Positions 2,557-58,131 of a stretch of 64,000 nt of DNA are shown piece after piece. Source of the DNA: Patescibacteria group bacterium (GTDB taxonomy: Bacteria; Patescibacteriota; Patescibacteriia; Veblenbacterales; UBA10138); NCBI GenBank assembly GCA_041645215.1, contig JBAZQK010000005.1:23562-87561 (forward strand). The letters are read 5' to 3'. The notes below the pieces were generated by a model that was not told the DNA's origin, searched no databases, and worked only from the letters and a program-made list of their open reading frames with translations. The position numbers were made by a program, and so were the translations under genes. The first letter of the stretch is position 1. Every line of letters starts with the position of its first letter.

Positions 2557-2557
2557 A

Positions 2558-22004: not shown

Positions 22005-22091
22005 CGGTGGGGGCGAGATTCGAACTCGCGGTCCGTTTTGGCGGACTCCGGTTTTCAAGACCGGTGCACTAAACCACTATGCGACCCCACC
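22005..22091 (-). tRNA. tRNA-Ser (anticodon TGA)
   Basis: Acceptor ggtgggg/ccccacc, anticodon arm ccggt-ctTGAaa-accgg, long variable arm, T-arm gcgag-ttcgaat-ctcgc; CCA not encoded. Confidence 0.8.
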
Positions 22092-42491: not shown

Positions 42492-42590
42492 ATTTTTAGT
42501 TTATCAATTTTATAACAAAATGCAATCTGGCGGCGACCCTGAAGATCTATAATCGATTTCTCGTCTAAACCCTATTTAATTTGGTTGTTA

Positions 42591-43061
42591 TTAATGTTTA
42601 TCAGAAAGGACAGTTAGAGCGTGAGCTATCAAAATCTCAATGACCTTTTTGTCCGAATTATAGCAAGCTATAAAATCATCAACCCGCATAAGACTTCGTT
42701 CAAACGCGTCTTGGCTGGGTATGAAGTCGCTCAATCGGCAATCGCGGGAGGTATAAAACAACATTTGTTTATCATTCCCCTCAAACTGCAGAGTGGCGAA
42801 GGGAATCGCCTGACCATCTATTATAACGCCTGATTCTTCTTTTACCTCTCGCTGTAAGGCCGAGAGTAGGTTAGTATCCCCTGGCTCAACATGTCCGCCT
42901 GGTACATCCCAGCCTCGCTCATTCCGAGTTGCAATAATCTGACCATCTATAAAACCAAGCAAAAATACTGCGCTTACCGATTGTTTTTGAGGCAGGTGGT
43001 TCTCATCAATATACTGGATATGCAATTGGCCCAGTGTAATTTTTTCCAGTGGAGTAATCAT
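42591..43061 (-). CDS. Nudix hydrolase
   Basis: Nudix box GGHVEPGDTNLLSALQREVKEESG. Confidence 0.75.
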   Translation of the reverse strand: MITPLEKITLGQLHIQYIDENHLPQKQSVSAVFLLGFIDGQIIATRNERGWDVPGGHVEPGDTNLLSALQREVKEESGVIIDGQAIPFATLQFEGNDKQMLFYTSRDCRLSDFIPSQDAFERSLMRVDDFIACYNSDKKVIEILIAHALTVLSDKH

Positions 43062-43199
43062 TATTTCTTTCCCATTTGATTTAGTTGATTCAAGTCCTTA
43101 TCTTATTTATCTACGATCAACTGTTATTATATTATCATTTTACTTTTTATTCAAAACCAGTCTTTTTACCCTATAGGTGTTTTTTAATTTAAACGAATT

Positions 43200-43275
43200 A
43201 GTGCAAATACTTCCATACTTCCCAGTATCAAAGTATTTGTCGATTTTATAATTGTCATGATTTATGCTTAAGAAT
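43200..43275. repeat. Dispersed hairpin element copy overlapping the 3' end of the Nudix gene
   Basis: gtgcaaatacttccatacttcccagtatcaaagtatttgtcgattttataattgtcatgatttatgcttaagaatc; supplies the last 8 codons and the stop of the 43255..43785 gene. Confidence 0.75.
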
Positions 43276-43785
43276 CTCTTTATGCATTTCTGTGGTAATT
43301 GAGTTGCACCAATTATCAGGATTATCGTTTTTGTCAGCCAGGTATTCATCAAAACTAAGCCACCGCGTAGCTTCAATTTCGCCATCTTTAAAATTAAATT
43401 GAGTTGATGCTTGGTTTAAATAAAAAGCCAACATAACAGTTAGGTGTTTGTAATTTTCGCTCCTTTCTTTCCGCCAACAGGCTAGCCGACCATCATTAAG
43501 GTTTAGTCCCAGTTCTTCGTTTATTTCCCTGGCAACATTTTGTTCAAAGTTTTCCCCCTTAGCCACGTGCCCGCCAAAGTAAGTTTGCCATTTATTGGGA
43601 TTACCCTCGTTGTTAGTGGAGCGCTTGGAACAGAGAATTTTTCCATCAGGATTAATTACCCAAATATTGGTAACAGCATGCCAAATTCGGTATGGTTTTT
43701 GGTGTGCCTCGGCGCGGGTATGAGGTTCTACTGGGTTGCCGTTTTCGTCAAAGCAGGCTAGTAGTTCTGACGTATCTTTGGACAT
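43255..43785 (-). CDS. Nudix hydrolase
   Basis: Nudix box GGHVAKGENFEQNVAREINEELG. Confidence 0.75.
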   Translation of the reverse strand: MSKDTSELLACFDENGNPVEPHTRAEAHQKPYRIWHAVTNIWVINPDGKILCSKRSTNNEGNPNKWQTYFGGHVAKGENFEQNVAREINEELGLNLNDGRLACWRKERSENYKHLTVMLAFYLNQASTQFNFKDGEIEATRWLSFDEYLADKNDNPDNWCNSITTEMHKEILKHKS

Positions 43786-44072: not shown

Positions 44073-45710
44073 ATGGAAAATAATAAGAAAACAGTAGTAT
44101 TAGTTACCCCACCGTCGCATACTCACCGTACAGCCGAAGAAAACCTGGGAATTGGCTATTTAGCCTCAAGTTTGAGAGCTAAAGGTTTCCCAGTGGTAAT
44201 TATAGATGCTTGGTTATATAACTATCCAATAAATATTCTAGTGGAGAAAATATTGACGATAAAAAATATTCTTTTTGTCGGCATTTCTTGTTATCGGTCA
44301 TCTTTGGATGACGTTGGAAATGTTATAAAGCAACTTAGACCGCTTGGTTATAATGGTGTTGTTACAGTTGGTGGATTTGGTCCAACTTTTCATGATTCCG
44401 ATTTTCTTTCTGTTGGTGTGGATGTTGTGTTAAAAGGAGAAGCGGAAGATTCAATAGTTGAATTAGCTAACTTATTAAATAATCGCAATTATCAAAAAAA
44501 CAACTTATCTAAAATATCTGGAGCATCTTGGTTAGGCCAAGCTGGACAAATCAACCGCACTAATCCCATTAAGGCTGATCATTTAGATTCCTTGTTCTTT
44601 CCAGCGAGAGATACTATGGCAATGAATTTACAAATGAAAAATCCAGCTCATCTTGTTACCAGCCGTGGTTGCACTTCTAATTGCTTGTTTTGTTCCATAA
44701 TCTCGTTTGAGAGACTGACAAAAAATAGGGTTACCTGGCGACAGCGCAGTATAGGCAACATAATTGAAGAGATAAAATATCTTTTTAACGAATATGGCAT
44801 ATCTACCTTTAAAATCGTGGACGATAGCTTTATAGAAGAAGGTAGAGATGTGGTTTGGACGGAAACTTTCCTTAATGAGTTGCGCAAAAATAACCTTAAA
44901 ATTCGATTCCGCACTCAGGTAAAAGCGAACGTTCTAACCAGTGAGTTAGTTGTTTGCTTAAAAGAAGCCGGTTGGTTTTCGACCAGTGTCGGTATTGAAA
45001 ATTTTGCTGAGACGGCCTTGCGTCGGATGAATAAGTCTTCTAGTCTTGAGCAAAATTTAAACGCCTTGGCTATGCTAGAAGAAAACGGTATTTACGTAGT
45101 CATGAATCTGATCCTTTTTGATCACAGCACGACTTGGTCCGAGTTAAAAGAAAATCTCTTTTACTTAAACAAGTTTAGCTGGCCGGTCATTAAGGGTTTA
45201 TTTACGGAAATGTACGCAGCCGAAGGTACGGCTTATTCCAGATTGTTGAAAAAAAGGGGCGAGCTGCTACCCAATAGTAATTTCATGAATAGGCAGTATA
45301 ATTTAGTCAATCATGATGTGGGGGTGATTTATACTTGTTTAAAGAAATGGCATAAGTCCCATTCAGCCGTATATGATCACGCTATAAACGTAATTGCCGC
45401 GCCTAAAAACTTGCCAGATTATGGTTATCAGAAGTATTTCAGGGTTTATCGACCGCTTTATGATTTGGATTTGCAGTTTTTTGCCAAGTTAATTAGTTTA
45501 CTAGAACAGTCTGCTCATAAACAACTGCCGCAAGCCCTGGAGTTTACTAATAACTTTATAACAAATACAAAACAAATTTTCGCCACAGTGGAAGGGGAAG
45601 TAACAGATTTAGATTTAGACTTTGGTATTTCTTACCAAGCCGAGTCTAATCCTTTTTTACACATCCCAGGAGATAGAAATGGAAAATCTCATAGAAAAAA
45701 TACCTCCTAA
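44073..45710 (+). CDS. B12-binding domain radical SAM protein
   Basis: N-terminal Rossmann-like B12-binding region (VVLVTPPS...GISCY...VTVGGFGPT); CxxxCxxC cluster motif TSRGCTSNCLFCS. Confidence 0.75.
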   Translation: MENNKKTVVLVTPPSHTHRTAEENLGIGYLASSLRAKGFPVVIIDAWLYNYPINILVEKILTIKNILFVGISCYRSSLDDVGNVIKQLRPLGYNGVVTVGGFGPTFHDSDFLSVGVDVVLKGEAEDSIVELANLLNNRNYQKNNLSKISGASWLGQAGQINRTNPIKADHLDSLFFPARDTMAMNLQMKNPAHLVTSRGCTSNCLFCSIISFERLTKNRVTWRQRSIGNIIEEIKYLFNEYGISTFKIVDDSFIEEGRDVVWTETFLNELRKNNLKIRFRTQVKANVLTSELVVCLKEAGWFSTSVGIENFAETALRRMNKSSSLEQNLNALAMLEENGIYVVMNLILFDHSTTWSELKENLFYLNKFSWPVIKGLFTEMYAAEGTAYSRLLKKRGELLPNSNFMNRQYNLVNHDVGVIYTCLKKWHKSHSAVYDHAINVIAAPKNLPDYGYQKYFRVYRPLYDLDLQFFAKLISLLEQSAHKQLPQALEFTNNFITNTKQIFATVEGEVTDLDLDFGISYQAESNPFLHIPGDRNGKSHRKNTS

Positions 45711-46833
45711 TGAGAAATTAAGCATAGAAAATATCGGCTGGACATTAGGTAACGATTGTCCTTATAGATGCAATCAATGTTACAGTCTTACTGCCAGGTT
45801 AAAAGGTAAAGACTTGGAAAGCAAACACGTTGATAGAATAGTTGACCAATTAAGCATAAACAAGATAAAGACAGTTAATTTAGGTGGCAATGAGCCAATA
45901 TTCACTAACGGTTTGGATGTTAAAAAGACTAAATTGCCTTATATTATTAAGTCTTTAGTAGATAAGAACATCTTGGTCGGCTTAACCACGGCTGGTGTGA
46001 CACTTCAACACCTGATCAGGTATTATGGCGACTACTTTTTACTGCTTAATGATGTTGATGTAAGTATTGATAGTCCTTTTAAATGGGAACATGATAAAAA
46101 CAGGGGAGCTCAGTTGTTTGATTCGGCTATATGGGTCGCCAATATGTGTCAGGCTCAGGGGATTGAGCACACTTTGGTAATGTGCGGTATGAATTGGAAT
46201 CTCTCAGAAAGTCATTTGCAAGGCTTGATAAATTTAGCCAAAGCAACGGGTAGTAACTTGAGAATAAACTACTTGAAACCGATTGAAGAAAAACATTTGG
46301 ATATTTTTCCAAGTGCGCGACAATATTATGAATCGGCACAATACTTGATTGACAGATGTAGTATAGTTGATTTGGGTGAGCCATTACTGTCCTCGGTTTA
46401 TTCTGATTTGGAAAAAGGGTGTCCTTGCGGTACGAAATCTTTTAGAATTCATTCCATCACCCCTGATGGCAAGGTGCCGGTTAGCCCCTGCGTTTATATG
46501 CACGATTATCGGTATGGGGACTTACTTAAAGACGATTTGATAGATATCATCAACTCAAATCAATTTAAAGCCTTTCGTCAAAGACGAAGTAACCCAGCAA
46601 ACATTCCAGGATGTAATTGCTGTGAACACTTAAATAGTTGTCGTGGTGGTTGCGCTGCCCGTTCCAGTTTATTTCATAAAAATAAAAATATATTAGAAGT
46701 GAAAGATCCTTATTGTTTAAAGGATTATACTGAAACAATTGTGGGTTCGTCACTTATTTCTGATGTTAATTTTGGGCAAAAATCATTGGTACATAGAGAT
46801 TATTTGTGTACCCTTATCTTATCGCCTAAGTGA
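45679..46833 (+). CDS. Radical SAM protein with SPASM C-terminal domain (maturase-like)
   Basis: CPYRCNQC radical SAM motif; C-terminal Cys-rich SPASM-like region (CPCGTKSF...CVYMHD...GCNCCEHLNSCRGGCAARS); start 6 nt after GGAGA and overlapping the upstream gene by about 30 nt. Confidence 0.75.
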   Translation: MENLIEKIPPNEKLSIENIGWTLGNDCPYRCNQCYSLTARLKGKDLESKHVDRIVDQLSINKIKTVNLGGNEPIFTNGLDVKKTKLPYIIKSLVDKNILVGLTTAGVTLQHLIRYYGDYFLLLNDVDVSIDSPFKWEHDKNRGAQLFDSAIWVANMCQAQGIEHTLVMCGMNWNLSESHLQGLINLAKATGSNLRINYLKPIEEKHLDIFPSARQYYESAQYLIDRCSIVDLGEPLLSSVYSDLEKGCPCGTKSFRIHSITPDGKVPVSPCVYMHDYRYGDLLKDDLIDIINSNQFKAFRQRRSNPANIPGCNCCEHLNSCRGGCAARSSLFHKNKNILEVKDPYCLKDYTETIVGSSLISDVNFGQKSLVHRDYLCTLILSPK

Positions 46834-46899
46834 TAAAACAATGTTATAATTAAATGAGGAAGTTTAAGGCTTCCTCATTATTATTTTCTCATTAAATTT

Positions 46900-47244
46900 A
46901 TGGTAACCCAGGCCAAAAATTTTCTTAATAAAATTGTTAAAGTGAAGATTGATAGGCCATTAGGTGCCAAGCACCCTAAACATGATTTTATTTATGAAGT
47001 TAATTACGGGTTTGTGCCGGGTACTTTGAGTTCTGACCAAAAAGAATTGGATGCTTATGTTTTAGGAGTGGATGGGCCATTGGAAGATTTTGAGGGTAGA
47101 TGTATAGCAGTTATTCATCGTACCAACGATGATGATGATAAATTGGTAGTTATAGCGCCAAATTCTCCAAATATGTCAGACGAAGAAATAATGAAAAGGG
47201 TGAATTTTCAAGAGCAGTTTTTTAAGTCTCATATTATTAGGTAA
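46900..47244 (+). CDS. Short inorganic-pyrophosphatase-like protein
   Basis: NYGFVPGT and LDAYVLGVDGP resemble the family I PPase NYGFIPxT / DGDPLDVLV motifs; only 114 aa. Confidence 0.45.
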   Translation: MVTQAKNFLNKIVKVKIDRPLGAKHPKHDFIYEVNYGFVPGTLSSDQKELDAYVLGVDGPLEDFEGRCIAVIHRTNDDDDKLVVIAPNSPNMSDEEIMKRVNFQEQFFKSHIIR

Positions 47245-47307
47245 TTGTTCTTTGTAATAAAAATAAATGGCCTCCATTAAATGGCGGCCATTTTATTAAA
47301 TATGATT

Positions 47308-48204
47308 TTATTTAATCATGAAATCGGGTAGATATTCGAAGTGAGTACTTTTGTTAGTAACATGTTTCTTTTGTTCACGGCAGTTACATTTTATGCCTTT
47401 GATTTTAGAAAGTTTGGGTAGAGCGGCAAGAAATATATCAAACGTCTTTTTTCTGCCAGTAATGATGTTGTTATCAATACATGTGCGAGCCAAAGGATCT
47501 TGCGCTAAAAAACGTGCTCTAAGTTTTCTATCATCAATCGTAGCCGCTAATCCAACATAATGACATCCAGCTTCTCTGGCTAGTGTTGCCTCTATGTCAG
47601 CGGTTTGACCGACAACATCCCATCTGTTTTTTGCATAATAATTTAATTCAGCTTCTGTTTCAATGCGAGGATAACCATGAAAGCAGACGTATATACCTTT
47701 TTTGTGCACTTTAAAGGGTATAAGCTTTGTTGATTGTATTAAGACATCCGTGGCTTCAGCACAAAATGGTTTAAGCATATCAACGTTTCTAAAGCCAGTG
47801 TCCATGTTTCTTGTTTGATCATAACCACCCATGCCGACTAAATCGTTTAGGATGTATACATCGCCAGCCTGGCTGTTGGGCTTGATTGAACCACAAGTAA
47901 ACGTTCCAACAATCGTTTCTATACCCATACTTGAAAGTGTTTCTTGTGTAAGGAGGAAATTAATTTTTTGTGACGTAGATCTAATTCGATCAAATCTTCC
48001 ATATATGATAATAAATGGAATACCCGCATGTTTAGTTAAAAAACAGCGATTGTGGATGCCGATTTTTGTTTCTACTATGATGTGATTATACGGGTTCTTA
48101 TTTAAGAACCAGTCAGGTCTAGCAATAATAGCGACCTTAGTTTTGAATTCCTTGCTGGCTTGGGCAAGTGACTCAAAATTTACGTAAAGACTTTGACTTA
48201 TCAT
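47308..48204 (-). CDS. PNP/MTAP-family nucleoside phosphorylase with Cys-containing C-terminal extension
   Basis: GTFTCGS and VCFHGYPRIETEAE resemble MTAP/PNP phosphate- and ribose-binding regions; extra C-terminal tail ...KCNCREQKKH. Confidence 0.6.
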   Translation of the reverse strand: MISQSLYVNFESLAQASKEFKTKVAIIARPDWFLNKNPYNHIIVETKIGIHNRCFLTKHAGIPFIIIYGRFDRIRSTSQKINFLLTQETLSSMGIETIVGTFTCGSIKPNSQAGDVYILNDLVGMGGYDQTRNMDTGFRNVDMLKPFCAEATDVLIQSTKLIPFKVHKKGIYVCFHGYPRIETEAELNYYAKNRWDVVGQTADIEATLAREAGCHYVGLAATIDDRKLRARFLAQDPLARTCIDNNIITGRKKTFDIFLAALPKLSKIKGIKCNCREQKKHVTNKSTHFEYLPDFMIK

Positions 48205-48205
48205 A

Positions 48206-48832
48206 TTAACTCCTTTGTATAGGTATTACTTGAGAAATTATTGACAAGCATTCATTGATTGAGTTTTTTTCTGTATCCAGCATTAAGTAATTTCTATGCA
48301 ATCTAGTTACATGATAGATCAATCGTTCTTGCATAGTTGAAATCAAATCTGGTTTATTGAAAAACAAATGATCAATTTCAGTACTATTGCTGTTATCTTT
48401 AATTCTTTTGAGTATAATGTCTGGATTGGCTTGTAAAATAATAGTGAGATGAGGATTGATCAATAAGTTTCTTCGCAAATATTCATCAAGTAATAAAGAA
48501 TCAGCGTTTAGGTTGTGAATTTCTCTGAAGGTTGTTATTGATAAATCATATCTTTCTTGTACAACTGTTTCTCCTCTAGCAATACTCGGCAGAATAGAAT
48601 CACTTGTATCAAAAATGCAATCAGCCCAGTAGAAGGCAGTTGAATAACCAAGATCAGTTATTTCTTTTGATTTGACTTCGCTGGAAAAAGGGGAATTGCT
48701 CAAAGCGCCTCGTTTGTGTCGGATAATTTGTTTGCTATTGTTTCTTAATAGTTTAACTAACTCAATAGCCAGAGTCGTTTTTCCGCATTTAGGAGGAGAC
48801 TCAAAGACTATGAATAATCCTGGATTTTTCAT
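48206..48832 (-). CDS. Thymidylate-kinase-like P-loop (d)NMP kinase
   Basis: Walker A ESPPKCGKTT and DRY-like VVQERYDLS motif; 1-bp gap from the phosphorylase gene suggests an operon. Confidence 0.55.
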   Translation of the reverse strand: MKNPGLFIVFESPPKCGKTTLAIELVKLLRNNSKQIIRHKRGALSNSPFSSEVKSKEITDLGYSTAFYWADCIFDTSDSILPSIARGETVVQERYDLSITTFREIHNLNADSLLLDEYLRRNLLINPHLTIILQANPDIILKRIKDNSNSTEIDHLFFNKPDLISTMQERLIYHVTRLHRNYLMLDTEKNSINECLSIISQVIPIQRS

Positions 48833-49032: not shown

Positions 49033-50295
49033 ATGAAAGAAAAAATAACTTATGGTCTTGATTTTGGAACTTCCAATACGGCCATTGTGGCTAATTATAA
49101 GGGAATTCTTAGACCAATCCCCTTGTCTTCTGATGGCAGTTTGATAACTCCAACCGTATTGTATTTTCCGCCGGATGGCAGAGTGTACAAATTCGGAGAT
49201 GAGGCCGTTAAAGAATATCTCGCCCGAAAAATGAAAGGCAGATTTATGCAGTCGCTTAAATCGTTTTTACCAAGTGAGTCTTTTTCTGGAACTTATATCT
49301 CCGGTTTTGGGCACAGGTATCTGCATGACTTGATTGCCCTTATATTTTCCGAGGTTAAAAAAAGAGCCGACATTCTGATTGGTGAGAACATAAGATCGGT
49401 AGTTATCGGTATACCAGCTAAATTTGTTAATGAATTAGACAACTCTTCAAGAAATTTAGCAGAAGAAAGATTGCGCATGGCCGCTGATATGGTTGGTTTT
49501 AAAGAAGTTAATTTTATTTTAGAGCCAATAGCCGCGGCTTATTACTACGAAACTTTATTAAATTCATCGGAAACTGTTTTGGTTGGTGATTTTGGCGGCG
49601 GTACTACAGATTTCACTATTATGAATCTTTCTCCAAATGGTAATAAAAAAATTGACCGCAAGGACGATATTTTGGCAACCAGCGGTATACCCATAGCCGG
49701 GAATAACTTCACTTCGGACTTAATGCGCAACAAGTTGCTTAAATACTTTGGCCAAGGTAGCAAATTTAAGTCTTGGGACAAGTGGTTAGAAATGCCCGTT
49801 CATATTTTACAAATGATATGTAAATGGGAAAATTTAGCCTTTATGAGGACTCCGGAATACCGCAAGACCATAAATATGCTTCTCAATAAAACAGATGATT
49901 ACGATGGTATATCAAGATTGCACACTCTAATAGAAGATAATCTTGGTTATACATTGTTCCAATCTATAGAAAGAGCCAAAATTGAGTTGTCGGGAAATGT
50001 TGTATCAAAGATATTGTTTTCGGAAAGCAACATTAAAATTGACGAGGAGGTGTCTAGAGAGGAGTATGATTATTTGATAGGTTATATGTACGAAAAGATA
50101 GATGAGACTATACAAGAAATGTTAAAGGTCTCATCAAAAAATCCGAAAGATATCGATGCGGTATTCTTAACTGGCGGAACTTCTTTTACTCCACTGATAA
50201 AAGATTATTTTACTAAGAAGTTTGGTAAAAATAAGATTAAAAGTAAAGATAATTTTACCGATGTTGCCAACGGTTTGGCCGCTTCGATGGTATGA
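49033..50295 (+). CDS. Hsp70-family ATPase, nucleotide-binding domain only (YegD-like)
   Basis: Phosphate 1 GLDFGTSNTAIV, phosphate 2 VLVGDFGGGTTDFTI, and adenosine motif VFLTGGTSFTPLIKDYF; no substrate-binding domain. Confidence 0.7.
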   Translation: MKEKITYGLDFGTSNTAIVANYKGILRPIPLSSDGSLITPTVLYFPPDGRVYKFGDEAVKEYLARKMKGRFMQSLKSFLPSESFSGTYISGFGHRYLHDLIALIFSEVKKRADILIGENIRSVVIGIPAKFVNELDNSSRNLAEERLRMAADMVGFKEVNFILEPIAAAYYYETLLNSSETVLVGDFGGGTTDFTIMNLSPNGNKKIDRKDDILATSGIPIAGNNFTSDLMRNKLLKYFGQGSKFKSWDKWLEMPVHILQMICKWENLAFMRTPEYRKTINMLLNKTDDYDGISRLHTLIEDNLGYTLFQSIERAKIELSGNVVSKILFSESNIKIDEEVSREEYDYLIGYMYEKIDETIQEMLKVSSKNPKDIDAVFLTGGTSFTPLIKDYFTKKFGKNKIKSKDNFTDVANGLAASMV

Positions 50296-50361
50296 AATGA
50301 TTTCTAAAAATTGAACGGGACTTGAGAAATTGATTTTAATCAACTCAAGTCCCTATTTATT

Positions 50362-50525
50362 TGCCTGCGATTAGTGCAAATACTTCCATACCCACACACC
50401 AGTCCCGTCTGACGGGACCAGCCCGACCAAGTCGGAGCGGTGCGGCCTGCCCGCCTTGGGCGAGGACTTCGCTTCCCAATATCAAAGTATTGGTCGTTTT
50501 TAATTATCACAATTTATACTTAAGA
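50362..50525. repeat. Dispersed hairpin element copy with a longer nested GC-rich insert
   Basis: gtgcaaatacttccataCCCACACACCAGTCCCGTCTGACGGGACCAGCCCGACCAAGTCGGAGCGGTGCGGCCTGCCCGCCTTGGGCGAGGACTTCGCttcccaatatcaaagtattggtcg... Confidence 0.75.
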
Positions 50526-50639
50526 ATTTCCCTATATGTTTCCGCAGTAAAGGGTTGTCGCAGGACAACCCTTATTAATTGATTGCATGCATTTGACATA
50601 TTTTTTGTATTGTATTAGGATATAGAAAAATAGTTCTTT

Positions 50640-50970
50640 GTAAGAAATCTAAAAATCAGTGACCAGGAATAGTAGGCTATTTAAGTCTAGCCGAGAGAGG
50701 GGAGAATAGTGTGAACTCCCTCTAGACCAATAGTTCGAATGGCCCTGCGAGATGTAAGCCGAAATTGGCTGACTTTAGCCAAAAGTAGTCTTTACCGGGA
50801 TTTACCCGCCGTAACCATGGGTTAGAACGTGTTGCCCCAAGCAAAGCGTTCTGAAAGCGTTCTCCGCCTCGGCGGAGAGAATAAAGGTGGTACCGCGAAG
50901 GTTGATATGACCTCCGTCCTTTAAACAGCATAGCTTGACTATGTTGTTTGAGGGATGGGGGTTTTTTGTT
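50640..50970 (+). promoter_or_regulatory. Candidate T-box riboswitch leader (tRNA-sensing antitermination element)
   Basis: T-box signature AAAGGTGGTACCGCG at 50882-50896; terminator-like hairpin aaacagcatag..ctatgttgttt plus T-run at 50920-50966; Stem I-like distal region with CTAG..GAGAGA..AGTGTGA..CTAG at 50686-50724; TTGACA at 50593; GC hairpin 50553-50577 upstream. Confidence 0.5.
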
Positions 50971-51037
50971 TAGCTCTTTAACAACTATATAGAATGTAAA
51001 AACAAATTATAAAAATAAAATAATAAGAGGTGTAGTT

Positions 51038-53593
51038 ATGCAAGCAAAAACATTTGAAGTATTAACTGTGTCTTTAGACCAATGTTTAATTGAGGGCCCT
51101 AGTCGTGTTGGCATTAAGGCTTGGCGTCTAGCGCAGTTAGACAGTTATGGTTATAAGGTTCCACCAGCCTTGATTATCCCGGCTGATGAGGTTGTTCGTA
51201 TTTGGAAAGATGGGCAGCTTATAATATCTGACGAAATCGTAAGTGATTTGTGGCATTACAGTTGTAAAAGATTAGAGGCAGGTAGTTTAATTGTTCGTAG
51301 TAGTGGACAAGAGGACGGTGAAAAATTATCTTTCGCTGGGCAGTTTAAATCTATAACTGATGTAAATTCAGTGGAGGAATTTAAGGAAGCTCTGCGTAGT
51401 TGTATAGCTTCTTCAGAGTCTGGTTCAATACAGAATTATAGTAAGGTTATGAATGGCAAAAATTACAGCGAGGGATATTCAGTAATGATAATGCCCCAAA
51501 GAGATTGTGTTTTTTCAGGGATTTTATTTTCGGAGGTGCATGTCAATGGCAACGAATCTGATCTTATCGTTTTGCAAGTTACACATGGTAATAACTTTGG
51601 TTTAACTTCAGGTTCAGAGTCTGGAGATATTCTGTATATTGACAAGTTAGATGGTTCAATAATATGCAGTATACCGCAAAAAAGAAAAGTTGCCGGATTT
51701 GATTCCGTAACCGTTGAGAGACTGTATAATATGGCGTTGGCTCTTGAAACTAAGTTTGGTTTTTCAGTTGATTTAGAGTGGGGGGTAATGCTTGATGGAA
51801 CCATTGAACTTTTTCAAGTGCGGCCAATTACTACCCTTAATAGCCCAGATTCATCCAATGTTCGTTTAAGGAGCATAATACAGACAGATTCCTTAATGAA
51901 AGCATCTTTGCTTAGTTTAAAAGACAGGCATATATCATTGGATGTTAATTACTGGAGTGACCAGAATATCGCTGAATTGATTACAGACCAACCTTCACGT
52001 ATGGCATTTGGTATATTTACTTACATATTTGCTCACGGTGACGGTGCAATTAAAATTGGCCGTAATCAAATGGGGTATGATATAGGCGATGAATTGACAG
52101 ACGGTTTTTTTGAGCTTATAGGTGGCCGACCGCGTTGTAGTATCATACACGACGCTCTAACCTATAGGGTGAAAGGAATACCACTGGACGATTATGTTAG
52201 TGGATTTATATCTCGTTATTTAGATAAAATTAAAAATAACGTACAATACGCTAACTATCCAGAGGTGGTGTTATATGAACAAAATCCAGCGCAAGATTCG
52301 CTTATTGAAATGTTTGGTAGTGAAAAGGGAGAGCAGTATGCTAAATATTACCAAAATTTTTTCGATAGAGTTAATCAGCTTGAGAAAACAGTGGTAGAGG
52401 AATTTAAATTATCTTTTGAACCAAGTTTTATTAAGTATATTGAAGGTAAAAGAGATGATATCGCCGGATTAGACTCTTCAGATTTGGGAGAGCTAGTGAA
52501 CTATGCGCAATCAATACTGGATCATTTGAGAACAGTAAGTTGTGTAATGTTTGTAAAGATAGCAAGGCTAGGATTCTTTGCTTATGCCCGTTTACGGGAG
52601 CTACTCAATGGCGAATTTGGGGAAAACAAAGGCAGACATCTTCTCGATCAAATGACCGCCGGACTGGAAGACGACTCATCAATGTTATTTAACGTTAGAC
52701 TTGCCCAGTTAAGAGATGAAATTGTCGACATCGAGTCGGTACTGTTAGAATTCGGACATTTGGGACCAAACGAATTGGAGATAGCCAATCCTAGATATCA
52801 TAATCAAGTTGATATACTTAAGAAATTATCTCAAAGGATTCAAGGAAATCCAGCTAACGAATTACATAATCGTGCGGTCGAGGCCGATAAGGTAACTAAT
52901 GAGGTCGCAAGCTCGTTGGATGAGTCTTTGGCCGCTAAACTGCGCAAGGATGTTAAAATTGCTAGACGTTATCTTGCTCTTCGCGAACGTGCTAAATATT
53001 ACTTTCTCATGGAATATGATTGTTTGCGTCAGGCATTGGAAAAAATTTCTTCAGAACTAAAATTGGAGCATAGGTTAATATTCGAACTGGATCCGCGTGA
53101 GTTGTCTCTCTTGGTTAGTGATATTCCCCTGGCATTATTGCTGATGAGAAAGCGCTACCAAGAAAGGGATATCCTGGCTAATATTCATATACCTCCAGTG
53201 ATAACACTTAATAACTTGGGAGACATCGGCCAAGATTCTTATGATCCTACTGAGAAAATCATGATGGGTATAGGTATTACGCCAATAGTAACGACCGGTG
53301 AAGCCATAGTTGTTTTAGATCCTAACGATACGGAAGGCCTATCAAGATTAAAGCCAGGTATGGTGCTTGTTGCCAAGACTACCGACCCTACTTGGGCACC
53401 GATTATTGCTGCTGTAGGCGGTAATGGTGCTTTGGTGACTGAAATAGGCGGACCGTTGGCTCATGGGGCAATAGTGGCACGTGATCTCGGTATAGCTTGT
53501 GTACAAAATGTTCCCATGGTAACCAAAAGAATACAAAATGGAAATATTGTTAAAGTTGATGGTAAAAATGGAATAGTTACAGTTTTATCTTAA
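51038..53593 (+). CDS. PEP-utilising dikinase-like enzyme with rifampin-phosphotransferase-like domain order (N-terminal ATP-grasp/PPDK_N, C-terminal swivel phosphohistidine domain)
   Basis: N-terminal RVGIKAWRLAQL (PPDK_N VGGK-like); C-terminal PEP-utilising mobile domain GEAIVVLDPNDTEGL...GGPLAHGAIVARDLGIACV; no TIM-barrel PEP-binding domain. Confidence 0.7.
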   Translation: MQAKTFEVLTVSLDQCLIEGPSRVGIKAWRLAQLDSYGYKVPPALIIPADEVVRIWKDGQLIISDEIVSDLWHYSCKRLEAGSLIVRSSGQEDGEKLSFAGQFKSITDVNSVEEFKEALRSCIASSESGSIQNYSKVMNGKNYSEGYSVMIMPQRDCVFSGILFSEVHVNGNESDLIVLQVTHGNNFGLTSGSESGDILYIDKLDGSIICSIPQKRKVAGFDSVTVERLYNMALALETKFGFSVDLEWGVMLDGTIELFQVRPITTLNSPDSSNVRLRSIIQTDSLMKASLLSLKDRHISLDVNYWSDQNIAELITDQPSRMAFGIFTYIFAHGDGAIKIGRNQMGYDIGDELTDGFFELIGGRPRCSIIHDALTYRVKGIPLDDYVSGFISRYLDKIKNNVQYANYPEVVLYEQNPAQDSLIEMFGSEKGEQYAKYYQNFFDRVNQLEKTVVEEFKLSFEPSFIKYIEGKRDDIAGLDSSDLGELVNYAQSILDHLRTVSCVMFVKIARLGFFAYARLRELLNGEFGENKGRHLLDQMTAGLEDDSSMLFNVRLAQLRDEIVDIESVLLEFGHLGPNELEIANPRYHNQVDILKKLSQRIQGNPANELHNRAVEADKVTNEVASSLDESLAAKLRKDVKIARRYLALRERAKYYFLMEYDCLRQALEKISSELKLEHRLIFELDPRELSLLVSDIPLALLLMRKRYQERDILANIHIPPVITLNNLGDIGQDSYDPTEKIMMGIGITPIVTTGEAIVVLDPNDTEGLSRLKPGMVLVAKTTDPTWAPIIAAVGGNGALVTEIGGPLAHGAIVARDLGIACVQNVPMVTKRIQNGNIVKVDGKNGIVTVLS

Positions 53594-53687
53594 AAACTAA
53601 AATAATCTTGTAAAGGGAGTCTATTTATGGACTCCCTATTTTTATTTTCAATTATTTGTTAATATTACTTTATAATTAAAGTAGTTT

Positions 53688-54380
53688 ATGGATTCCAATA
53701 GCATACAATTTTTCTTTATTCGTCATGGTCAATTGGTTGAACCTTACTTGAATCATTTAGTTATGGATTATTCTACTTTAAGTGATTTAGCTACGAGCGC
53801 ACTTGACCCTGGTATTAATAAGAACGCCATTGATTTATTTAATAGACAAACGAGCGGGCTTGATTTTTCGGCTGTTTCACGAATCTATTATAATAATTCC
53901 GGTTTTCAATCACGCCGTTCATTGGAATCGGCTAAAATTATGGCCGAAGTTTTTTTAAGGCGCTATAAAAAAGAAATAACTCCGGTTGGTTTGTCGGAAC
54001 TTAAAGAGGTTCGTTTTGATGTTCGGCAGCTAGTGAGTAAAGATGATTTTAAAATCAATGGTATGCCAGCCATTAGGACAGCTTTGTATAGTTCTTTTGT
54101 TAACGGCGGTAGCGCCGAGTCAATAGTTGAGCTAGAAAAGCGAATTGGCGTTATTAACAGCGTCGCGGCCAGGCGTGCTCTTAAAAGAGAAAGCGTATTG
54201 TTTGTTACTCATGATTTTTTTATGCGGGTGTTGGAGGTTTATATAAATCGTGCCGATAGGTTGCAAGGAGTAACGATAAATGATTTTGAGAAAACCTCGC
54301 TTAATTCGTATTTTTCTGGTTTTTTAACCACTACTGAATTTAATAGTCTTACGCGCTGGGGTTCAGATATATTTAAATAA
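53688..54380 (+). CDS. Histidine phosphatase superfamily (PGAM-like) protein
   Basis: N-terminal FIRHGQ (RHG catalytic motif) and distal VTHDFFMRV. Confidence 0.55.
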   Translation: MDSNSIQFFFIRHGQLVEPYLNHLVMDYSTLSDLATSALDPGINKNAIDLFNRQTSGLDFSAVSRIYYNNSGFQSRRSLESAKIMAEVFLRRYKKEITPVGLSELKEVRFDVRQLVSKDDFKINGMPAIRTALYSSFVNGGSAESIVELEKRIGVINSVAARRALKRESVLFVTHDFFMRVLEVYINRADRLQGVTINDFEKTSLNSYFSGFLTTTEFNSLTRWGSDIFK

Positions 54381-54431
54381 ACAATATAAACCTGAAAAAT
54401 ACCAAGGCGGTATTTTTAACAGCGGAGCTAT

Positions 54432-54848
54432 ATGAGCACAAAATGTAAATATCAAATTACCGTTGGGGGCGTACTGTTAAAACAGAATAAGGTTTTATTG
54501 CTACAGCGGGCAGCCAGCGAAAGAGTGTTGCCAAATTTGTGGGAACTGCCGTCGGGCAAAAAAGAAACGACAGAAACTATATGGCAAGCATTGGTTAGAG
54601 AGTTTAAGGAAGAAACCGGCTTAAAGGTAAAAATAGTTAAACCGATTTCAGTTTTTGATTATCGGCTTATTAAAGATAGGCAAAAGGTTTATACTACGCA
54701 AATTAATTTTTTAGTTAAATACACTGGCCGTAGGTTAGAAATAAAACTAAGTCCGGAACACAGGGCTTATAAATGGGTAGGTAGGAAGGATTTGAAGAAA
54801 CTAAAAGTTTCCAGGGAAATAAGTAGGGTTGTAAATTCCGTTTTGTGA
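54432..54848 (+). CDS. Nudix hydrolase
   Basis: Nudix box SGKKETTETIWQALVREFKEETGL. Confidence 0.75.
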   Translation: MSTKCKYQITVGGVLLKQNKVLLLQRAASERVLPNLWELPSGKKETTETIWQALVREFKEETGLKVKIVKPISVFDYRLIKDRQKVYTTQINFLVKYTGRRLEIKLSPEHRAYKWVGRKDLKKLKVSREISRVVNSVL

Positions 54849-54939
54849 AAATTCTCCCCAATGTTTAGCCGGGGGAGTTTTTAGTTTAGCTTAACCAGCG
54901 CTATTTGATAAATTATGGTAAGCCATTTATAGTGTTAAT

Positions 54940-56019
54940 ATGAAAGGCGCTATAGTAATTAAGATCGGCAGCAACTCATTGCTCGACACGCAAGGTAATA
55001 TCGACCACGCGTTCCTCCGGAGGGTTGTGAGTGTGCTTAAGGAAATACAAAGTCGAGGGAAGTTTTCTTTATTGGTGTTGTCTGGAGCGGTATTAACCGG
55101 CAAGTCTGACACATCAGCGTTAGCCTCATATGCGGCCCGGGCCGCCCGTGGACAACTAATTATCACAGCCTTAATGCATCAACTTGGTGAATCAGCGGGT
55201 GTGAAATTTAGTCAGTTTCTTATTTCACGGCAAGATATTGTTGACCGCGGTCGCTACAATACTTTGCAAAAGACTTTTCAGGAAAGTCTTAATGCCGGCA
55301 TTATTCCGCTTATAAACGAAAACGATGCTACGGCGGCGGCCCAGACTCATGATTTTATAGATAATGATCAAGTGGCCACTATTGTTAGCATGGTAGTTGG
55401 TGCAGAGAGTTTATTTTTATTTACTAATGTGGCTGGCGTTTTTCGCGCCGCGCCAGACGATGAAATAAAAGAGGAGCAGGCTCCTATAGCTTGTATTACA
55501 GATGTGAATAAAGAATTGATGAGTATGTATATAGGCAAAAAAAGTCTAGTTGGCCGTGGCGGTATGGAATCAAAACTGAGCGCCGCTCGTTTGGCTAGTT
55601 TTGTCGGTATTACCACTTATATTCTGGATGGGAGAATAATTGAACATGCGCTTGAGATAGTTGATGGTAAACAGTGTCGTGGCACTGTTTGTTTACCATG
55701 GCCACAACCGATTTCACTGACTGATCGTAGCCGACGGTTGATTGTTTCACACACATCAAGCGCGAGTATTAAGGTTGATGTCGGTGCGGTGGCGGCTCTT
55801 CATCAGCGGAAAAGTCTATTGGCTGTTGGTGTAACACGTGTCTATGGTACTTTTGATGTTCAAGACTCGGTTGAAATAATTGATTACAACAATCACCCAA
55901 TCGCACTCGGTGTATCGTCTTTGTCCAGCGTTGAACTTAGTAAAATAATTACGGCTAAGGACCGTCCGTTTAATGTTGAGGTAATACATGCTGATAATTT
56001 AATCTTGTTTCCTTTATGA
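54940..56019 (+). CDS. proB: Glutamate 5-kinase with C-terminal PUA domain
   Basis: AAK-family N-terminus IVIKIGSNSLL; PUA-like C-terminus; overlaps proC start by 4 nt. Confidence 0.85.
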   Translation: MKGAIVIKIGSNSLLDTQGNIDHAFLRRVVSVLKEIQSRGKFSLLVLSGAVLTGKSDTSALASYAARAARGQLIITALMHQLGESAGVKFSQFLISRQDIVDRGRYNTLQKTFQESLNAGIIPLINENDATAAAQTHDFIDNDQVATIVSMVVGAESLFLFTNVAGVFRAAPDDEIKEEQAPIACITDVNKELMSMYIGKKSLVGRGGMESKLSAARLASFVGITTYILDGRIIEHALEIVDGKQCRGTVCLPWPQPISLTDRSRRLIVSHTSSASIKVDVGAVAALHQRKSLLAVGVTRVYGTFDVQDSVEIIDYNNHPIALGVSSLSSVELSKIITAKDRPFNVEVIHADNLILFPL

Positions 56020-56852
56020 AAAAAAATAATATCGTAGTTATTGGCGGGGGCAATATGGGCCAGGCCTTTATCCGGTGTTTATTACGGCTGCCTGGGGTTT
56101 TGCCCCGCGATATTACGGTGGTGGAACGCAATTCAACCAAGCGCCAAAAATTGGCTGCACGTTTTTTAATAAAATCTGCGCCGGATTTATCATCACGGCT
56201 GCTTAACCAGGCTACGGTGGTTTTAGTGGCAGTTAAACCGCAGGATTTTCCCGGCGTGGCCGTATTAATGCGCGGCCAGCTTCCCCAAACCGGTTTACTG
56301 ATATCAATTATGGCCGGGGTTAGATTGGCCACCGTGCAAACGGCGGTTGATTTTACACGGGTGATTAGAGTAATGCCGAATTTGCCAATGATTTTAGGCC
56401 AAGGTTTTTCGGCTTGGTGCGCGAGCCGCCGGGTAACTAGGGAACAAAAAACTTTTATACGCGCGCTGTTGTCGGCTGGTGGCCAGGAAACTGAAATTCG
56501 TGATGAAAGCCTGTTTGACGCCATTACGGCGGTCAGCGGTTCCGGACCGGCTTATATTTTTTCTATGGTGGACAATTTGATGGCCGCGGCGGTTCGTTTA
56601 GGTATAAAAACAGACGTGGCTAAGAAAATGGTAATGCAAACTATCAAGGGTAGTGTGGCTCTGCTGGAGCAATCAGCTGATTCACCGTCTGCCTGGCGCC
56701 GACGCGTAACTTCTAAAGGTGGAACAACCGCGGGCGCCTTTCGTATTTTAGACAAAGCTCATCTTGATAAGCTGTGGTTTAGGGCCTTAACAGCCGCGGT
56801 CCAGCGTTCATATTCACTGTCGGTTTTAATTGACAGACAGTTGCGAAAATAA
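56016..56852 (+). CDS. proC: Pyrroline-5-carboxylate reductase
   Basis: NADP-binding IVVIGGGNMGQAF; catalytic VTSKGGTTAGAF (SPGGTT-like). Confidence 0.85.
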   Translation: MKKNNIVVIGGGNMGQAFIRCLLRLPGVLPRDITVVERNSTKRQKLAARFLIKSAPDLSSRLLNQATVVLVAVKPQDFPGVAVLMRGQLPQTGLLISIMAGVRLATVQTAVDFTRVIRVMPNLPMILGQGFSAWCASRRVTREQKTFIRALLSAGGQETEIRDESLFDAITAVSGSGPAYIFSMVDNLMAAAVRLGIKTDVAKKMVMQTIKGSVALLEQSADSPSAWRRRVTSKGGTTAGAFRILDKAHLDKLWFRALTAAVQRSYSLSVLIDRQLRK

Positions 56853-56871
56853 TAAGGCAATTCGAAATTTT

Positions 56872-58131
56872 ATGACCAATTTTAATACTACTTTGCCAAG
56901 AGTTAAGCTGGCCGCCGGCGCAGTACAGCAGTTAAGTGGCCAAACCAAGAATGCCGTACTGCGGGATTTACGCCGCGGGCTGATAGCTTCAACTAAGGAA
57001 ATTCTACTGGCCAATGACAAAGATTTTTTGCGTTTGCCGGCCGCTTATCCTCATGCTGATAGGTTAAAATTAACGCCAACGCGTATTTTAGGAATGGCGA
57101 AAAGTTTGCAGGCAGTGGAACGCCTGGCTGACCCAACCAACCGTTTGCTTGACCGTCGCGTGCTAAAAAACGGATTAACGATTGAGCGGCGTACGGTTCC
57201 GCTGGGCGTGATTGGCATTATTTATGAAGCCCGGCCCAATGTGACGGTGGAAGTGTTTAGTTTAGCTTTTAAAGCCGGTAACGCCTTGCTGCTTAAAGGC
57301 GGCCGCGATGCTTACGAAACCAATAAAGTTTTGGTTGATTTGATTCACCGGGTTTTGCGTAAGCACAAAATTTCGCCCGACGCCGTAACCTTGATTAATG
57401 CTTTTAAACCCGCGGACACTGAACGCCTATTAAAGGCCAACCAATATATTGACGTTATAATTCCGCGCGGCAGCAATCGGTTAATTAATTATGTTCGCAG
57501 TCACTCTACGATACCGGTAATTGAAACCGGCGCCGGGGTGTGCCATATGTATGTGGAGCGGTCAGCCAATTTAACCTGGGCCGTCCGCCTAGTGTTTAAC
57601 GCTAAAACCAGGCGGGTTAGTGTGTGTAATGCTTTAGACACACTACTGGTTGATACTAGTATTGCGCCACGTCTTTTTAAAAAATTGGCGCCCGAGCTGG
57701 CTAAGGCGGGGGTGGTAATTTACGCTGACAAAAAAGGCTACCAAATTCTTAAAACCGGTTACCCGAATAACTTATTGCACCAGGCTAGACCAGCGCATTT
57801 TGGTAAAGAATTTCTCAGTTTAGCGATGAGTGTGAAAACGGTGCCTGATTGGCGCGCCGCCTTTCAGCATATTAGTCGCTATACCTCCAAACATTCCGAA
57901 GGTATAATTACCACTAATCAAAAATTAGCAGCTAAGTTTCAGCAAACTATTGATGCGGCGGCGGTCTATGTTAACACCTCAATTGGTTTTACCGACGGCT
58001 ATGAGTTTGGCTTGGGTGGCGAGATTGGCATCAGCACGCAAAAGTTGCAGGCCCGCGGCCCCCTGGGACTTTCAGAATTGGTTACTTACAAATGGTTGGT
58101 TACCAGCCGCGGCGTCACTCGGCCCGGATAG
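56872..58131 (+). CDS. proA: Gamma-glutamyl phosphate reductase
   Basis: ARPNVTVEVFSLAFKAGNALLLKGG and VSVCNALDTLLV (catalytic Cys region); start taken at MTNFNT (the ORF-track start 56830 is in the same frame); terminator hairpin 58168-58205. Confidence 0.85.
   Translation: MTNFNTTLPRVKLAAGAVQQLSGQTKNAVLRDLRRGLIASTKEILLANDKDFLRLPAAYPHADRLKLTPTRILGMAKSLQAVERLADPTNRLLDRRVLKNGLTIERRTVPLGVIGIIYEARPNVTVEVFSLAFKAGNALLLKGGRDAYETNKVLVDLIHRVLRKHKISPDAVTLINAFKPADTERLLKANQYIDVIIPRGSNRLINYVRSHSTIPVIETGAGVCHMYVERSANLTWAVRLVFNAKTRRVSVCNALDTLLVDTSIAPRLFKKLAPELAKAGVVIYADKKGYQILKTGYPNNLLHQARPAHFGKEFLSLAMSVKTVPDWRAAFQHISRYTSKHSEGIITTNQKLAAKFQQTIDAAAVYVNTSIGFTDGYEFGLGGEIGISTQKLQARGPLGLSELVTYKWLVTSRGVTRPG

Follow-up and report, generated by a model that had tools for sequence, protein, structure and literature searches.

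A dikinase-phosphatase pair under tryptophan-specific control in bacteria of the Candidate Phyla Radiation: a putative enzyme system for tryptophan supply

In the rifampin phosphotransferase RPH, the beta-phosphate of ATP is carried on a swiveling histidine to an acceptor in the central domain, where an Arg666/Glu667/Lys670 triad serves phosphotransfer (PMC4844700). The characterized relatives of RPH take aromatic hydroxyls or related groups as acceptors. Phenols are substrates of RPH-type dikinases, and in the Hpe pathway the phosphate comes off again once carboxylation is complete (PMC12167813). In a resistome survey, rph-like genes from the Candidate Phyla Radiation (CPR) were counted as rifampin-resistance genes (PMC8651080). 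Here, a locus encoding a protein of this architecture was analyzed in a 64,000-nucleotide stretch of contig JBAZQK010000005.1 (hereafter, the window), in which the dikinase gene is followed on the same strand by genes for a divergent histidine phosphatase (HP) and a Nudix hydrolase and preceded by a T-box leader RNA; the evidence throughout is computational. The control elements and genome context of this locus and its relatives point away from drug resistance and toward an enzyme system, so far undescribed, for tryptophan supply.

The three open reading frames (ORFs) listed in an initial annotation of the window were recovered exactly as given, all on the plus strand, and the 742-bp spacer upstream of the dikinase gene contains a promoter-like site, the T-box leader, a terminator, and a ribosome-binding site:

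50593-50621, plus strand: sigma-70-like promoter TTGACA-17-TAGGAT, 10/12 consensus and the best in the region, presumably placed just 5' of the T-box
50650-50924, plus strand: full-length T-box leader RNA (Rfam RF00230, 91.3 bits, E=1.7e-20, model positions 1-219)
50740-50742, plus strand: UGG (Trp), the specifier codon, within the specifier loop of Stem I, read as GAA-UGG-C and followed by a helix in which CCUG pairs with CAGG
50883-50897, plus strand: conserved T-box sequence AAAGGUGGUACCGCG, with the UGGU bulge at 50888-50891 that pairs with the tRNA 3' NCCA end
50914-50968, plus strand: intrinsic terminator of the T-box expression platform from the terminator scan (hairpin 50914-50958 plus U-run, stem of ~20-24 bp), overlapping the antiterminator 3' strand
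51025-51032, plus strand: ribosome-binding site AAGAGGTG, recognized by reading the sequence, 5 nt ahead of the ATG at 51038
51038-53593, plus strand: RPH-architecture dikinase, 851 aa (ATP-grasp domain at aa ~1-270, helical substrate domain at aa ~270-735, C-terminal swivel domain)
53614-53637, plus strand: hairpin and T-run between the dikinase and HP genes from the terminator scan (10-bp stem, 5 GC), a candidate partial terminator or processing/stability element
53688-54380, plus strand: divergent HP of branch 1, 230 aa (catalytic R12-H13, R77, E107, and H175; large cap insertion)
54432-54848, plus strand: Nudix hydrolase, a lineage-specific third gene, 138 aa (PF00293, E=3.5e-20; Nudix box GX5EX7REUXEEXGU matched by regular expression)
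54853-54885, plus strand: terminator-like hairpin at the operon end, recognized by reading the sequence (CTCCCC...GGGGAG, then TTTTT)

The dikinase begins with a PPDK_N ATP-grasp domain (E=1.2e-18) and ends with a PEP-utilizers swivel domain (aa 772-845, E=9.3e-18), and a domain-profile search for the PEP-utilizers_C TIM barrel (PF02896) gave no match. Residues K27, R87, E92/D93, D245/E247, and Q260/R262 of the ATP-grasp domain, which structurally matches the corresponding domains of RPH and HpeI, are invariant across the dikinase family. Equally invariant are the phospho-carrier H809, whose segment GGPLAH809GAIVAR aligns with GGLMTH825GAVIAR of RPH, and R649/E650/K653 of the central domain, which align with the RPH triad R666/E667/K670. 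An AlphaFold (AF2) model built from 29 homologues (pLDDT 88) gave a full-length Foldseek match to Listeria RPH (5hv1, E=5.7e-31), whereas PpsA and PPDK matched only in the ATP-grasp and swivel parts (E ~1e-9 to 1e-7); relatives of the dikinase carry PF27448 (Rph_4th). The domain set, the full-length match, and the R-E-x-x-K triad bear out the initial annotation, which had called the protein an RPH-like dikinase and had allowed for a PpsA/PPDK-like central domain instead. Because the TIM barrel is absent, the histidine domain is C-terminal, and the structural matches are partial, the protein is not PpsA or PPDK; that identity was rejected on its scores as well, which reach 88-146 bits against PpsA models with cut-offs of 598-883 (146 versus 883 for the PpsA-like PRK06241). 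Scores against the NCBIfam RPH models were 121 bits for NF041857 (equivalog cut-off 999) and 78 for NF000283 (cut-off 1700), those against the PigC and RedH models were 133 bits (cut-off 1300), and no alignment with the rifampin-contact residues of RPH was obtained by sequence. With its catalytic residues intact, the dikinase is apparently active and of the RPH type. Split forms, with the ATP-grasp part and the substrate/swivel part as separate proteins, occur in lineages L037, L042, and L066, where the HP is retained. Distant homologues in Chloroflexi and Actinobacteria have unrelated neighbors and no HP, and therefore gave no functional lead.

The protein encoded downstream contains FIRHGQ at aa 10-15 and VTHDF at aa 173-177. 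Its score against Pfam His_Phos_1 (PF00300; 14.5 bits, E=0.028) lies below the gathering threshold of 21.7, and a PF00300 match is precomputed for about half of its relatives. The relatives (n=30) conserve R12-H13(G/S), R77, E107, and H175-D176, with R12-H13-G14, R77, E107, and H175 invariant or conserved among 24 sequences, and the structural model (pLDDT 94.6) has the PGAM/histidine-phosphatase alpha/beta fold, with Foldseek matches to dPGM, PspA, PhoE, and CobC (E ~1e-6, TM ~0.6, 10-16% identity). The conserved catalytic residues and the fold identify it as a histidine phosphatase, as first annotated, despite the sub-threshold Pfam score. Cap insertions such as the one seen here are typical of small-molecule members of the HP superfamily. 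The HP matched no NCBIfam family at E<=0.01 and no PDB entry by sequence. Since it lacks an NCBIfam match and always travels with the dikinase, the HP is not an unrelated cobC/gpmB-type housekeeping gene, an identity that had been considered at the outset. Both the dikinase and the HP are predicted to be soluble. Neither matched any PADLOC defense model, and a defense-system reading was rejected on that ground and because upstream genes of the window matching PDC-M51 are not kept with the two genes in relatives.

To place the pair in a wider context, dikinase-family loci were collected from genome and metagenome contigs (n=60) and collapsed at 95% identity to 40 lineages, with membership set by a family hidden Markov model (members at least 485 bits, all other loci at most 375 bits). 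ORF calls in the related loci were mechanical, and lineage counts vary with the extent of each contig. All 40 lineages are of CPR type; labels of the relatives' metagenome-assembled genomes (MAGs), a kind of label that is unreliable, span Kerfeld-, Buchanan-, Sung-, Falkow-, Magasanik-, Doudna-, Taylor-, and Paceibacteria, as well as Saccharibacteria. Downstream DNA is present for 36 of the 40 lineages, and in 33 of these a phosphatase gene lies directly downstream of the dikinase, far beyond chance: the HP follows immediately on the same strand in 28 and behind a 113-aa ORF in one, and in four its place is taken by a protein of the low-molecular-weight protein tyrosine phosphatase (LMW-PTP) fold (LMWPc, 1.2e-16). 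The last three lineages have LMWPc or HP within a few kb of the dikinase. In the LMWPc proteins both the CX5R(S) loop and the acidic Asp are intact, and in P0098 (976 aa) dikinase and LMWPc are fused, the LMW-PTP coming right behind the swivel domain. The maintained gene adjacency, the displacement by a non-homologous protein, and the fusion together provide strong evidence that dikinase and phosphatase would work as a unit; the kinase-phosphatase module proposed from the window is thus upheld by adjacency in 33 of 36 lineages, replacement by LMW-PTP, and the P0098 fusion. Judged from gene order, the dikinase-phosphatase pair is conserved in CPR, the Nudix hydrolase being a lineage-specific add-on. 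Both phosphatases are present in three lineages. LMW-PTP-like genes were found besides the HP in L019 (7105-7734), L039 (2384-2935), L053 (directly 3' of the HP), and L002 (1387-1944), and in the L002 protein the catalytic Cys is replaced by Ser. Because some lineages carry both enzymes, and given the Cys-to-Ser change in L002, the HP and LMW-PTP may not be simple substitutes for each other.

Stem I of the leader of the window operon includes a specifier loop; the leader further has the UGGN bulge and terminator and antiterminator structures that exclude each other. The terminator folds at -40.7 kcal/mol (z=-6.7 versus shuffles), and promoter-like matches overall showed no enrichment over shuffles. 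The TBDB rule places the specifier at nucleotides 2-4 counted from the bulge's 3' end (PMC7778990), which gives UGG, i.e., tryptophan. In ~25 of the 40 lineages, a T-box motif followed by a terminator precedes the dikinase gene, and the relatives' T-boxes that were tested in Rfam scored 39-55 bits (E about 4e-9 to 3e-5). All related leaders have UGG in this position, both those with a canonical Stem I (GAA-UGG-A, GAAAU-UGG-A, GAAAA-UGG-A, or GAA-UGG-G) and a second type with a very short Stem I and an invariant U-UGG-G beside the closing helix. This helix, which flanks the specifier, covaries, with double changes in five of five outer pairs and 90% of cells paired versus 76% in shuffles; for four of the five whole-structure measures, none of 500 shuffles attained the observed values. 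Across loci the T-box bulge is UGGU or UGGC, the pattern that TBDB reports for Trp T-boxes (PMC7778990); it fits the G73 discriminator of tRNA-Trp, present in all three neighboring tRNA-Trp genes read, and excludes Gly. GGC (Gly) was accordingly rejected as specifier, given both the UGG[U/C] bulge and the conservation of UGG in the two leader types.

Lineages without a T-box have short Trp-rich leader ORFs followed by terminators, TrpR-family genes, or both. Examples of the leader peptides are MKYTSPYKLNNSTWWALHSRKVLG, MKKLTQKINSMSWWAKLFLV, MNTRQNNQIKKLGKSWWGIELFTLASFC, MWGGDPDDWW, MKYNSHKNNITWWSLKGLLLG, and MKYIHGKNLHTIGWWSPLSIREASFDFFV; among 2,874 background small ORFs, only 1.6% contain WW or WxW. 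L008 has what reads in the sequence as a classical attenuator, made up of the leader, the terminator, and an alternative pairing of 9 bp. A TrpR-family gene (PF01371, 6e-18) lies beside the dikinase in eight lineages, and only L061 is without a recognizable upstream Trp signal, the gene for tryptophanyl-tRNA synthetase (TrpRS) directly following the dikinase there. These elements show an operon that is predicted to respond to tryptophan or to tRNA-Trp charging, and the convergence of three independent Trp-sensing mechanisms (T-box, Trp-codon attenuator, and TrpR) on one dikinase-phosphatase pair is regulon evidence of unusual strength.

The third gene of the window operon presents a different picture. 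Its product is a Nudix hydrolase by both its PF00293 match and its Nudix box, in agreement with the initial annotation; it reached no specific NCBIfam equivalog, and it matches the PADLOC candidate PDC-S07. An orthologous downstream Nudix gene is found only in the window and in L002, and other Nudix genes lie nearby in ~3 further lineages (~5/40 in total), so that the gene does not belong to the conserved module. The third gene of L001 codes for a fusion of ThpR, an RNA 2',3'-cyclic phosphodiesterase (97 bits, above cut-off), with an RppH-like Nudix domain. The two hairpins ascribed to the operon are both present (53614-53637 and 54853-54885), the latter having been missed by the terminator scan, seemingly on account of a loop longer than the scan's 8-nt limit. 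The further suggestion that each gene has a terminator of its own is doubtful, because relatives have a short dikinase-phosphatase gap (-47 to 161 nt) and evidently transcribe the genes together.

Genes within 6 kb of the dikinase were counted by lineage. The HP (30 lineages) is followed by TrpRS (12/40; best PDB match T. maritima TrpRS, 1.7e-77), LMWPc (9), TrpR (8), a chorismate-mutase-like/methyltransferase fusion (6), a Group II pyridoxal phosphate (PLP) decarboxylase (5), an AstE/AspA-type deacylase (4), an unannotated membrane protein with ~10 transmembrane segments beside TrpRS (4), an Hsp70-like protein (3), TrpB of the TrpB1 type (3, with trpA in two), and, in two lineages each, an M20 deacylase, a Trp-2,3-dioxygenase-family protein, an EamA transporter, and an amino-acid racemase with a WxW leader of its own. 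Genes for tRNA-Trp(CCA) occur at the loci of 10 lineages, and all other tRNAs combined at those of four. Thus, the module sits in a tryptophan-centered neighborhood. The racemase gene (TIGR00035, 157 bits) lies upstream of the dikinase in L008 (7074-7766) and L011 (7059-7751) and is preceded by a W-S-W leader peptide and terminator (6915-6968 and 6911-6961, respectively), which suggests Trp-controlled racemization, possibly for D-Trp salvage. A tryptophan 2,3-dioxygenase family gene (PF03301, 2e-25) stands beside TrpRS and the dikinase in L016 (6506-7483) and downstream of TrpRS in L061; together with the Group II PLP decarboxylases, it indicates that Trp-modifying enzymes share the neighborhood.

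Several neighbors deserve a record in their own right. The fusion of a chorismate-mutase-like domain (TIGR01803/CM_2) to a class I S-adenosylmethionine methyltransferase lies between TrpRS and the dikinase in six lineages (L006 5677-6972, L017 6215-7321, L035 11697-12842, L012 3026-3820, L022 12578-13747, and L046). The TrpRS-adjacent membrane protein (L037 8343-9365 on the minus strand, L042, L066, and one more) has ~340 aa, ~9-10 hydrophobic segments, and no Pfam match; it is a multi-pass membrane protein and a candidate tryptophan transporter, and likeness to tryptophan 2,3-dioxygenase was looked for and rejected. Upstream of trpB-trpA, a GGTGGAACCGCGG motif followed by a strong terminator was observed in L002 (2150-2350) and L009 (60-220). 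Rfam did not recognize it as a T-box at E<=0.01, nor was a convincing Trp leader found there, and its candidacy as a T-box was dropped.

Taken together, these observations are most readily accommodated by a module induced by tryptophan starvation that phosphorylates and then dephosphorylates a small metabolite, probably an indolic one, en route to tryptophan, a reading that is put forward tentatively, at a little under even probability. Uncharged tRNA-Trp would bind the T-box leader through UGG:CCA and UGGU:GCCA pairing and stabilize the antiterminator, permitting read-through into the dikinase, phosphatase, and Nudix genes. The ATP-grasp domain would load the beta-phosphate of ATP onto His809, with release of AMP and Pi, and the swivel domain would then dock on the helical central domain, where R649/E650/K653 would position the phosphate for transfer. 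The acceptor would be a hydroxyl (or N-H) of a small molecule, probably aromatic or indolic by family precedent, and the phosphate may serve as a transient activating or handle group, to be removed by the partner phosphatase (through His13 in the HP and a Cys in the LMW-PTP of other lineages) from the product of an intervening step. The Cre pathway offers a second case of a phosphate handle that is removed at the end. The net effect would be a supply of tryptophan, or of its direct precursor, to an organism thought to be without the de novo pathway; CPR bacteria in general are presumed auxotrophs for tryptophan. We infer the small-molecule nature of the acceptor, its identity, the intermediate step, and the contribution to tryptophan supply; a small, probably indolic, metabolite is favored because the adjacent or co-regulated racemase, deacylases, trpBA, and transporters look like salvage functions.

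Several points weigh against this proposal. Among the lineages, no universally conserved third enzyme was found between kinase and phosphatase, so that the pair, taken literally, would run a futile cycle, and tryptophan itself has no hydroxyl group. Synteny is stronger to the charging machinery (TrpRS and tRNA-Trp) than to biosynthesis (trpB in three lineages). The HP and LMW-PTP families both include protein and P-N phosphatases, and three lineages carry members of both. The T-box leader of the window, at 91.3 bits, is 1.7 bits under the Rfam gathering cut-off of 93, and the ThpR-Nudix fusion of L001 hints at an RNA substrate. It is possible, if doubtful, that the system is either an ATP-driven route for making or recovering tryptophan, in which PigC-like, phosphorylation-activated coupling or conversion of an indolic compound is followed by dephosphorylation, or a reversible phosphorylation of the Trp-charging machinery; if so, it would represent a new function for RPH-type dikinases and a new member of the T-box/attenuator/TrpR regulon. 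Two further ideas fared poorly. A serine kinase feeding an O-phosphoserine-dependent TrpB2 was weakened by the adjacent TrpB being of the TrpB1 type (1e-148 versus 1e-28) and by the phosphatase, which would destroy O-phosphoserine, and a 'trap-and-release' mode of Trp uptake was rejected by kinetic reasoning alone, since its steady state brings no rise in free Trp.

Of the other explanations, one takes the opposing activities at face value: the dikinase would make, and the phosphatase destroy, a phosphorylated small molecule that tunes the Trp-starvation response. This is the simplest account of two opposing enzymes that are always co-expressed, once fused, and without a conserved intermediate enzyme, and control of signal metabolites by a kinase and an HP domain is established in PFK-2/FBPase-2 and PPIP5K. 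However, T-box regulons classically comprise aminoacyl-tRNA synthetase, biosynthesis, and transport genes, the co-regulated racemase, trpBA, and deacylases look like salvage enzymes, and a receptor or effector is not evident, making such a signal unlikely. The futile-cycle or control point raised in the initial annotation survives as a rival; that annotation is confirmed in what it observed and supported in part in its interpretation. The strength of synteny with TrpRS (12 lineages) and tRNA-Trp (10 lineages) could also be explained if the dikinase phosphorylated a protein such as TrpRS, or an RNA hydroxyl as in tRNA-Trp, and the HP or LMW-PTP reversed this. Both phosphatase families include phospho-His, phospho-Arg, and phospho-Tyr protein phosphatases, and a ThpR-RppH-like Nudix fusion is the third gene in one relative. 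Against a macromolecular target stand the central domain, which has the small-molecule-binding fold of RPH, and the large HP cap, which goes with small substrates in known members; no RPH-type dikinase is known to act on protein or RNA, and TrpR control in eight lineages points to free Trp, not tRNA integrity, as the signal. Even though SixA, an HP, is reported to dephosphorylate a phosphotransferase-system phosphocarrier protein (PMC7948535), a macromolecular substrate is considered distinctly unlikely.

If the phosphatase acted instead on the enzyme, clearing phospho- or pyrophospho-His809 for proofreading or gamma-phosphate removal and leaving the product alone, the LMW-PTP fused directly behind the swivel domain in P0098 and the universal coupling to a phosphatase of interchangeable fold would be understandable. 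PpsA and GWD, however, are not known to need such a partner, some lineages have two phosphatases, and split dikinases still keep the HP; by the published account, RPH needs none either (PMC4844700). A reset function is improbable. The initial annotation had also raised detoxification of an antibiotic or metabolite. A resistance kinase of the RPH type that inactivates an antibiotic or xenobiotic, perhaps a TrpRS inhibitor or a Trp antimetabolite, and is induced when tRNA-Trp charging fails would agree with the RPH-like architecture and with the counting of CPR rph-like genes as resistance genes (PMC8651080), and the T-box would presumably also fire under TrpRS inhibition. Yet the score is far under the RPH equivalog cut-off (121 versus 999 bits), the family is spread broadly over CPR classes with stable synteny, a co-expressed phosphatase would undo the inactivation, and TrpR and leader-peptide control answers to Trp supply. 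Detoxification accordingly found no support in an operon that is Trp-controlled through T-box UGG, leader peptides, and TrpR and stands beside TrpRS and tRNA-Trp, and the resistance kinase is highly improbable. Scarcely credible is a chance adjacency of two housekeeping enzymes of carbon metabolism, phosphoenolpyruvate (PEP) synthase and a phosphoglycerate mutase or cobC-type phosphatase. Such a pairing is echoed by the database names 'PEP/pyruvate-binding domain-containing protein' and 'pyruvate, water dikinase' and by the presence of dPGM among the HP fold matches, but the dikinase has no PEP/pyruvate TIM barrel, carries its His domain at the C terminus, and scores far below cut-off with PpsA models, and the HP, without an NCBIfam match, is replaced by LMW-PTP in some lineages under regulation that is Trp-specific. 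Drug resistance and PEP synthesis are therefore both unlikely functions, and the transient phosphorylation of a small metabolite toward tryptophan is retained as the preferred reading.

The surroundings of the operon in the window are mixed. Just upstream of the T-box lies an Hsp70-family gene (YegD-like, PRK11678 2.5e-62; 49033-50295), homologues of which are near the module in L016 (3187-4485, with Nudix genes) and L022 (~2506-3603). Between it and the T-box promoter, a GC-rich segment unlike its surroundings (50390-50480) is followed by a strong hairpin, AAGGGTTGTCGCAGGACAACCCTT, at 50497-50579; a mechanical 73-aa ORF in this region (50361-50582) is probably no gene, and Rfam gave only weak, chance-level matches there (E ~1-3). 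Directly 3' of the Nudix gene, a complete proB-proC-proA proline operon (54940-58131) scores above NCBIfam cut-offs throughout, which is notable for a lineage assumed to be minimal in amino-acid biosynthesis. Farther upstream, a low-GC cluster (44073-48832 and 42024-43785) encodes a B12-binding radical SAM protein (PADLOC PDC-M51A, 3e-16), a radical SAM/SPASM protein with weak pVip similarity, a dTMP-kinase-like protein (PDC-M51B, 9e-8), a pyrophosphatase-like ORF, a PNP/MTAP-like phosphorylase, and, on the minus strand, two Nudix genes with a hypothetical ORF. It may be a nucleotide-modifying or candidate defense island, and in relatives it does not accompany the dikinase module; the idea of a single low-GC nucleotide-modifying island (42-55 kb) that would include the three operon genes was dropped, the flanks differing in every relative. 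Two tRNA-Ser genes (GCT and TGA anticodons) lie ~500 bp apart on the minus strand (21439-21530 and 22004-22091). A large fn3-domain ORF (30214-33609) opens a region extending to 41588 that continues with four paralogous BNR/sortilin-repeat proteins ending in type IX secretion system (T9SS; Por_Secre_tail) sorting domains, which is unexpected under a Patescibacteria label. The three window proteins are named 'PEP/pyruvate-binding domain-containing protein', 'hypothetical protein', and 'NUDIX hydrolase' at NCBI under the MAG label 'Patescibacteria group bacterium', and an 8.9-kb copy of the same window DNA is binned as 'Bacteroidales'. Because of that binning and the T9SS domains, the taxonomy of the contig is open to doubt.

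A large part of the diversity of bacteria belongs to CPR/Patescibacteria, which are presumed to rely on hosts for their amino acids and whose response to a shortage of the rarest one is poorly understood. No paper that connects T-boxes, tryptophan, CPR, and a dikinase came up in a full-text literature search, and the TBDB paper makes no mention of dikinase or phosphatase T-box targets (PMC7778990). The component parts belong to known superfamilies; as a functional family, these RPH-type dikinases with their obligate phosphatase are new, and the pair is a new member of the Trp T-box, attenuator, and TrpR regulon. There is strong regulon evidence for a function named in no database, yielding a testable prediction for two soluble enzymes. 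T-box biology gains a new class of genes, and short-Stem-I Trp T-boxes and classical Trp attenuators are documented in CPR. The results also caution against scoring CPR rph-like genes as antibiotic-resistance genes (PMC8651080).

The dikinase shares features with several described systems and differs from each of them. PpsA and PPDK have a TIM barrel that is absent here and a different domain order, and their structural matches are partial. In PFK-2/FBPase-2 and PPIP5K/Vip1, a kinase (an ATP-grasp enzyme in PPIP5K) is likewise partnered by, or joined in one chain with, an HP-superfamily phosphatase for the same metabolite; however, these eukaryotic proteins lack a swivel His, their modules are non-homologous to those described here, and the sole fusion in the present family is to LMW-PTP. 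The prodiginine-condensing enzymes PigC, RedH, and HapC belong to the same dikinase superfamily. Enzymes of the PigC type activate a carbonyl by phosphorylation for attack by a pyrrole carbon, and indole could undergo such chemistry. In contrast to the present family, PigC has no partner phosphatase, the score of the dikinase with its model is far below cut-off, and no sign of condensation is seen here. With the Trp T-box regulon (trpS, the trp operon, trpXYZ, and rtpA-ycbK), the operon shares the UGG specifier and the UGG[U/C] bulge; ycbK belongs to the EamA transporter family, and an EamA transporter is operon-adjacent in two dikinase lineages, although dikinase and phosphatase targets were not found in the T-box regulon descriptions searched. 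HpeHI (acting on hydroxyphenylethanones), CreHI (on 4-cresol), and phenylphosphate synthase are RPH-homologous kinases of aromatic hydroxyls, and the two-component form of HpeHI and CreHI (PMC12167813) recurs in the split dikinases. Pathways of the Hpe/Cre type are catabolic and substrate-induced and include several intervening enzymes (carboxylase, P450, and dehydrogenases), whereas only kinase and phosphatase are conserved here and the operon follows amino-acid starvation. RPH of Listeria monocytogenes (PDB 5FBS/5HV1) has the same order of ATP-grasp domain, helical substrate domain, and C-terminal swivel His, with H809 and the triad kept in the dikinase; despite this likeness, sequence identity is ~16-17% and scores fall below the equivalog cut-off, and the dikinase differs from RPH in its obligatory partner phosphatase, its Trp-specific control, and the restriction of its family to CPR-type lineages.

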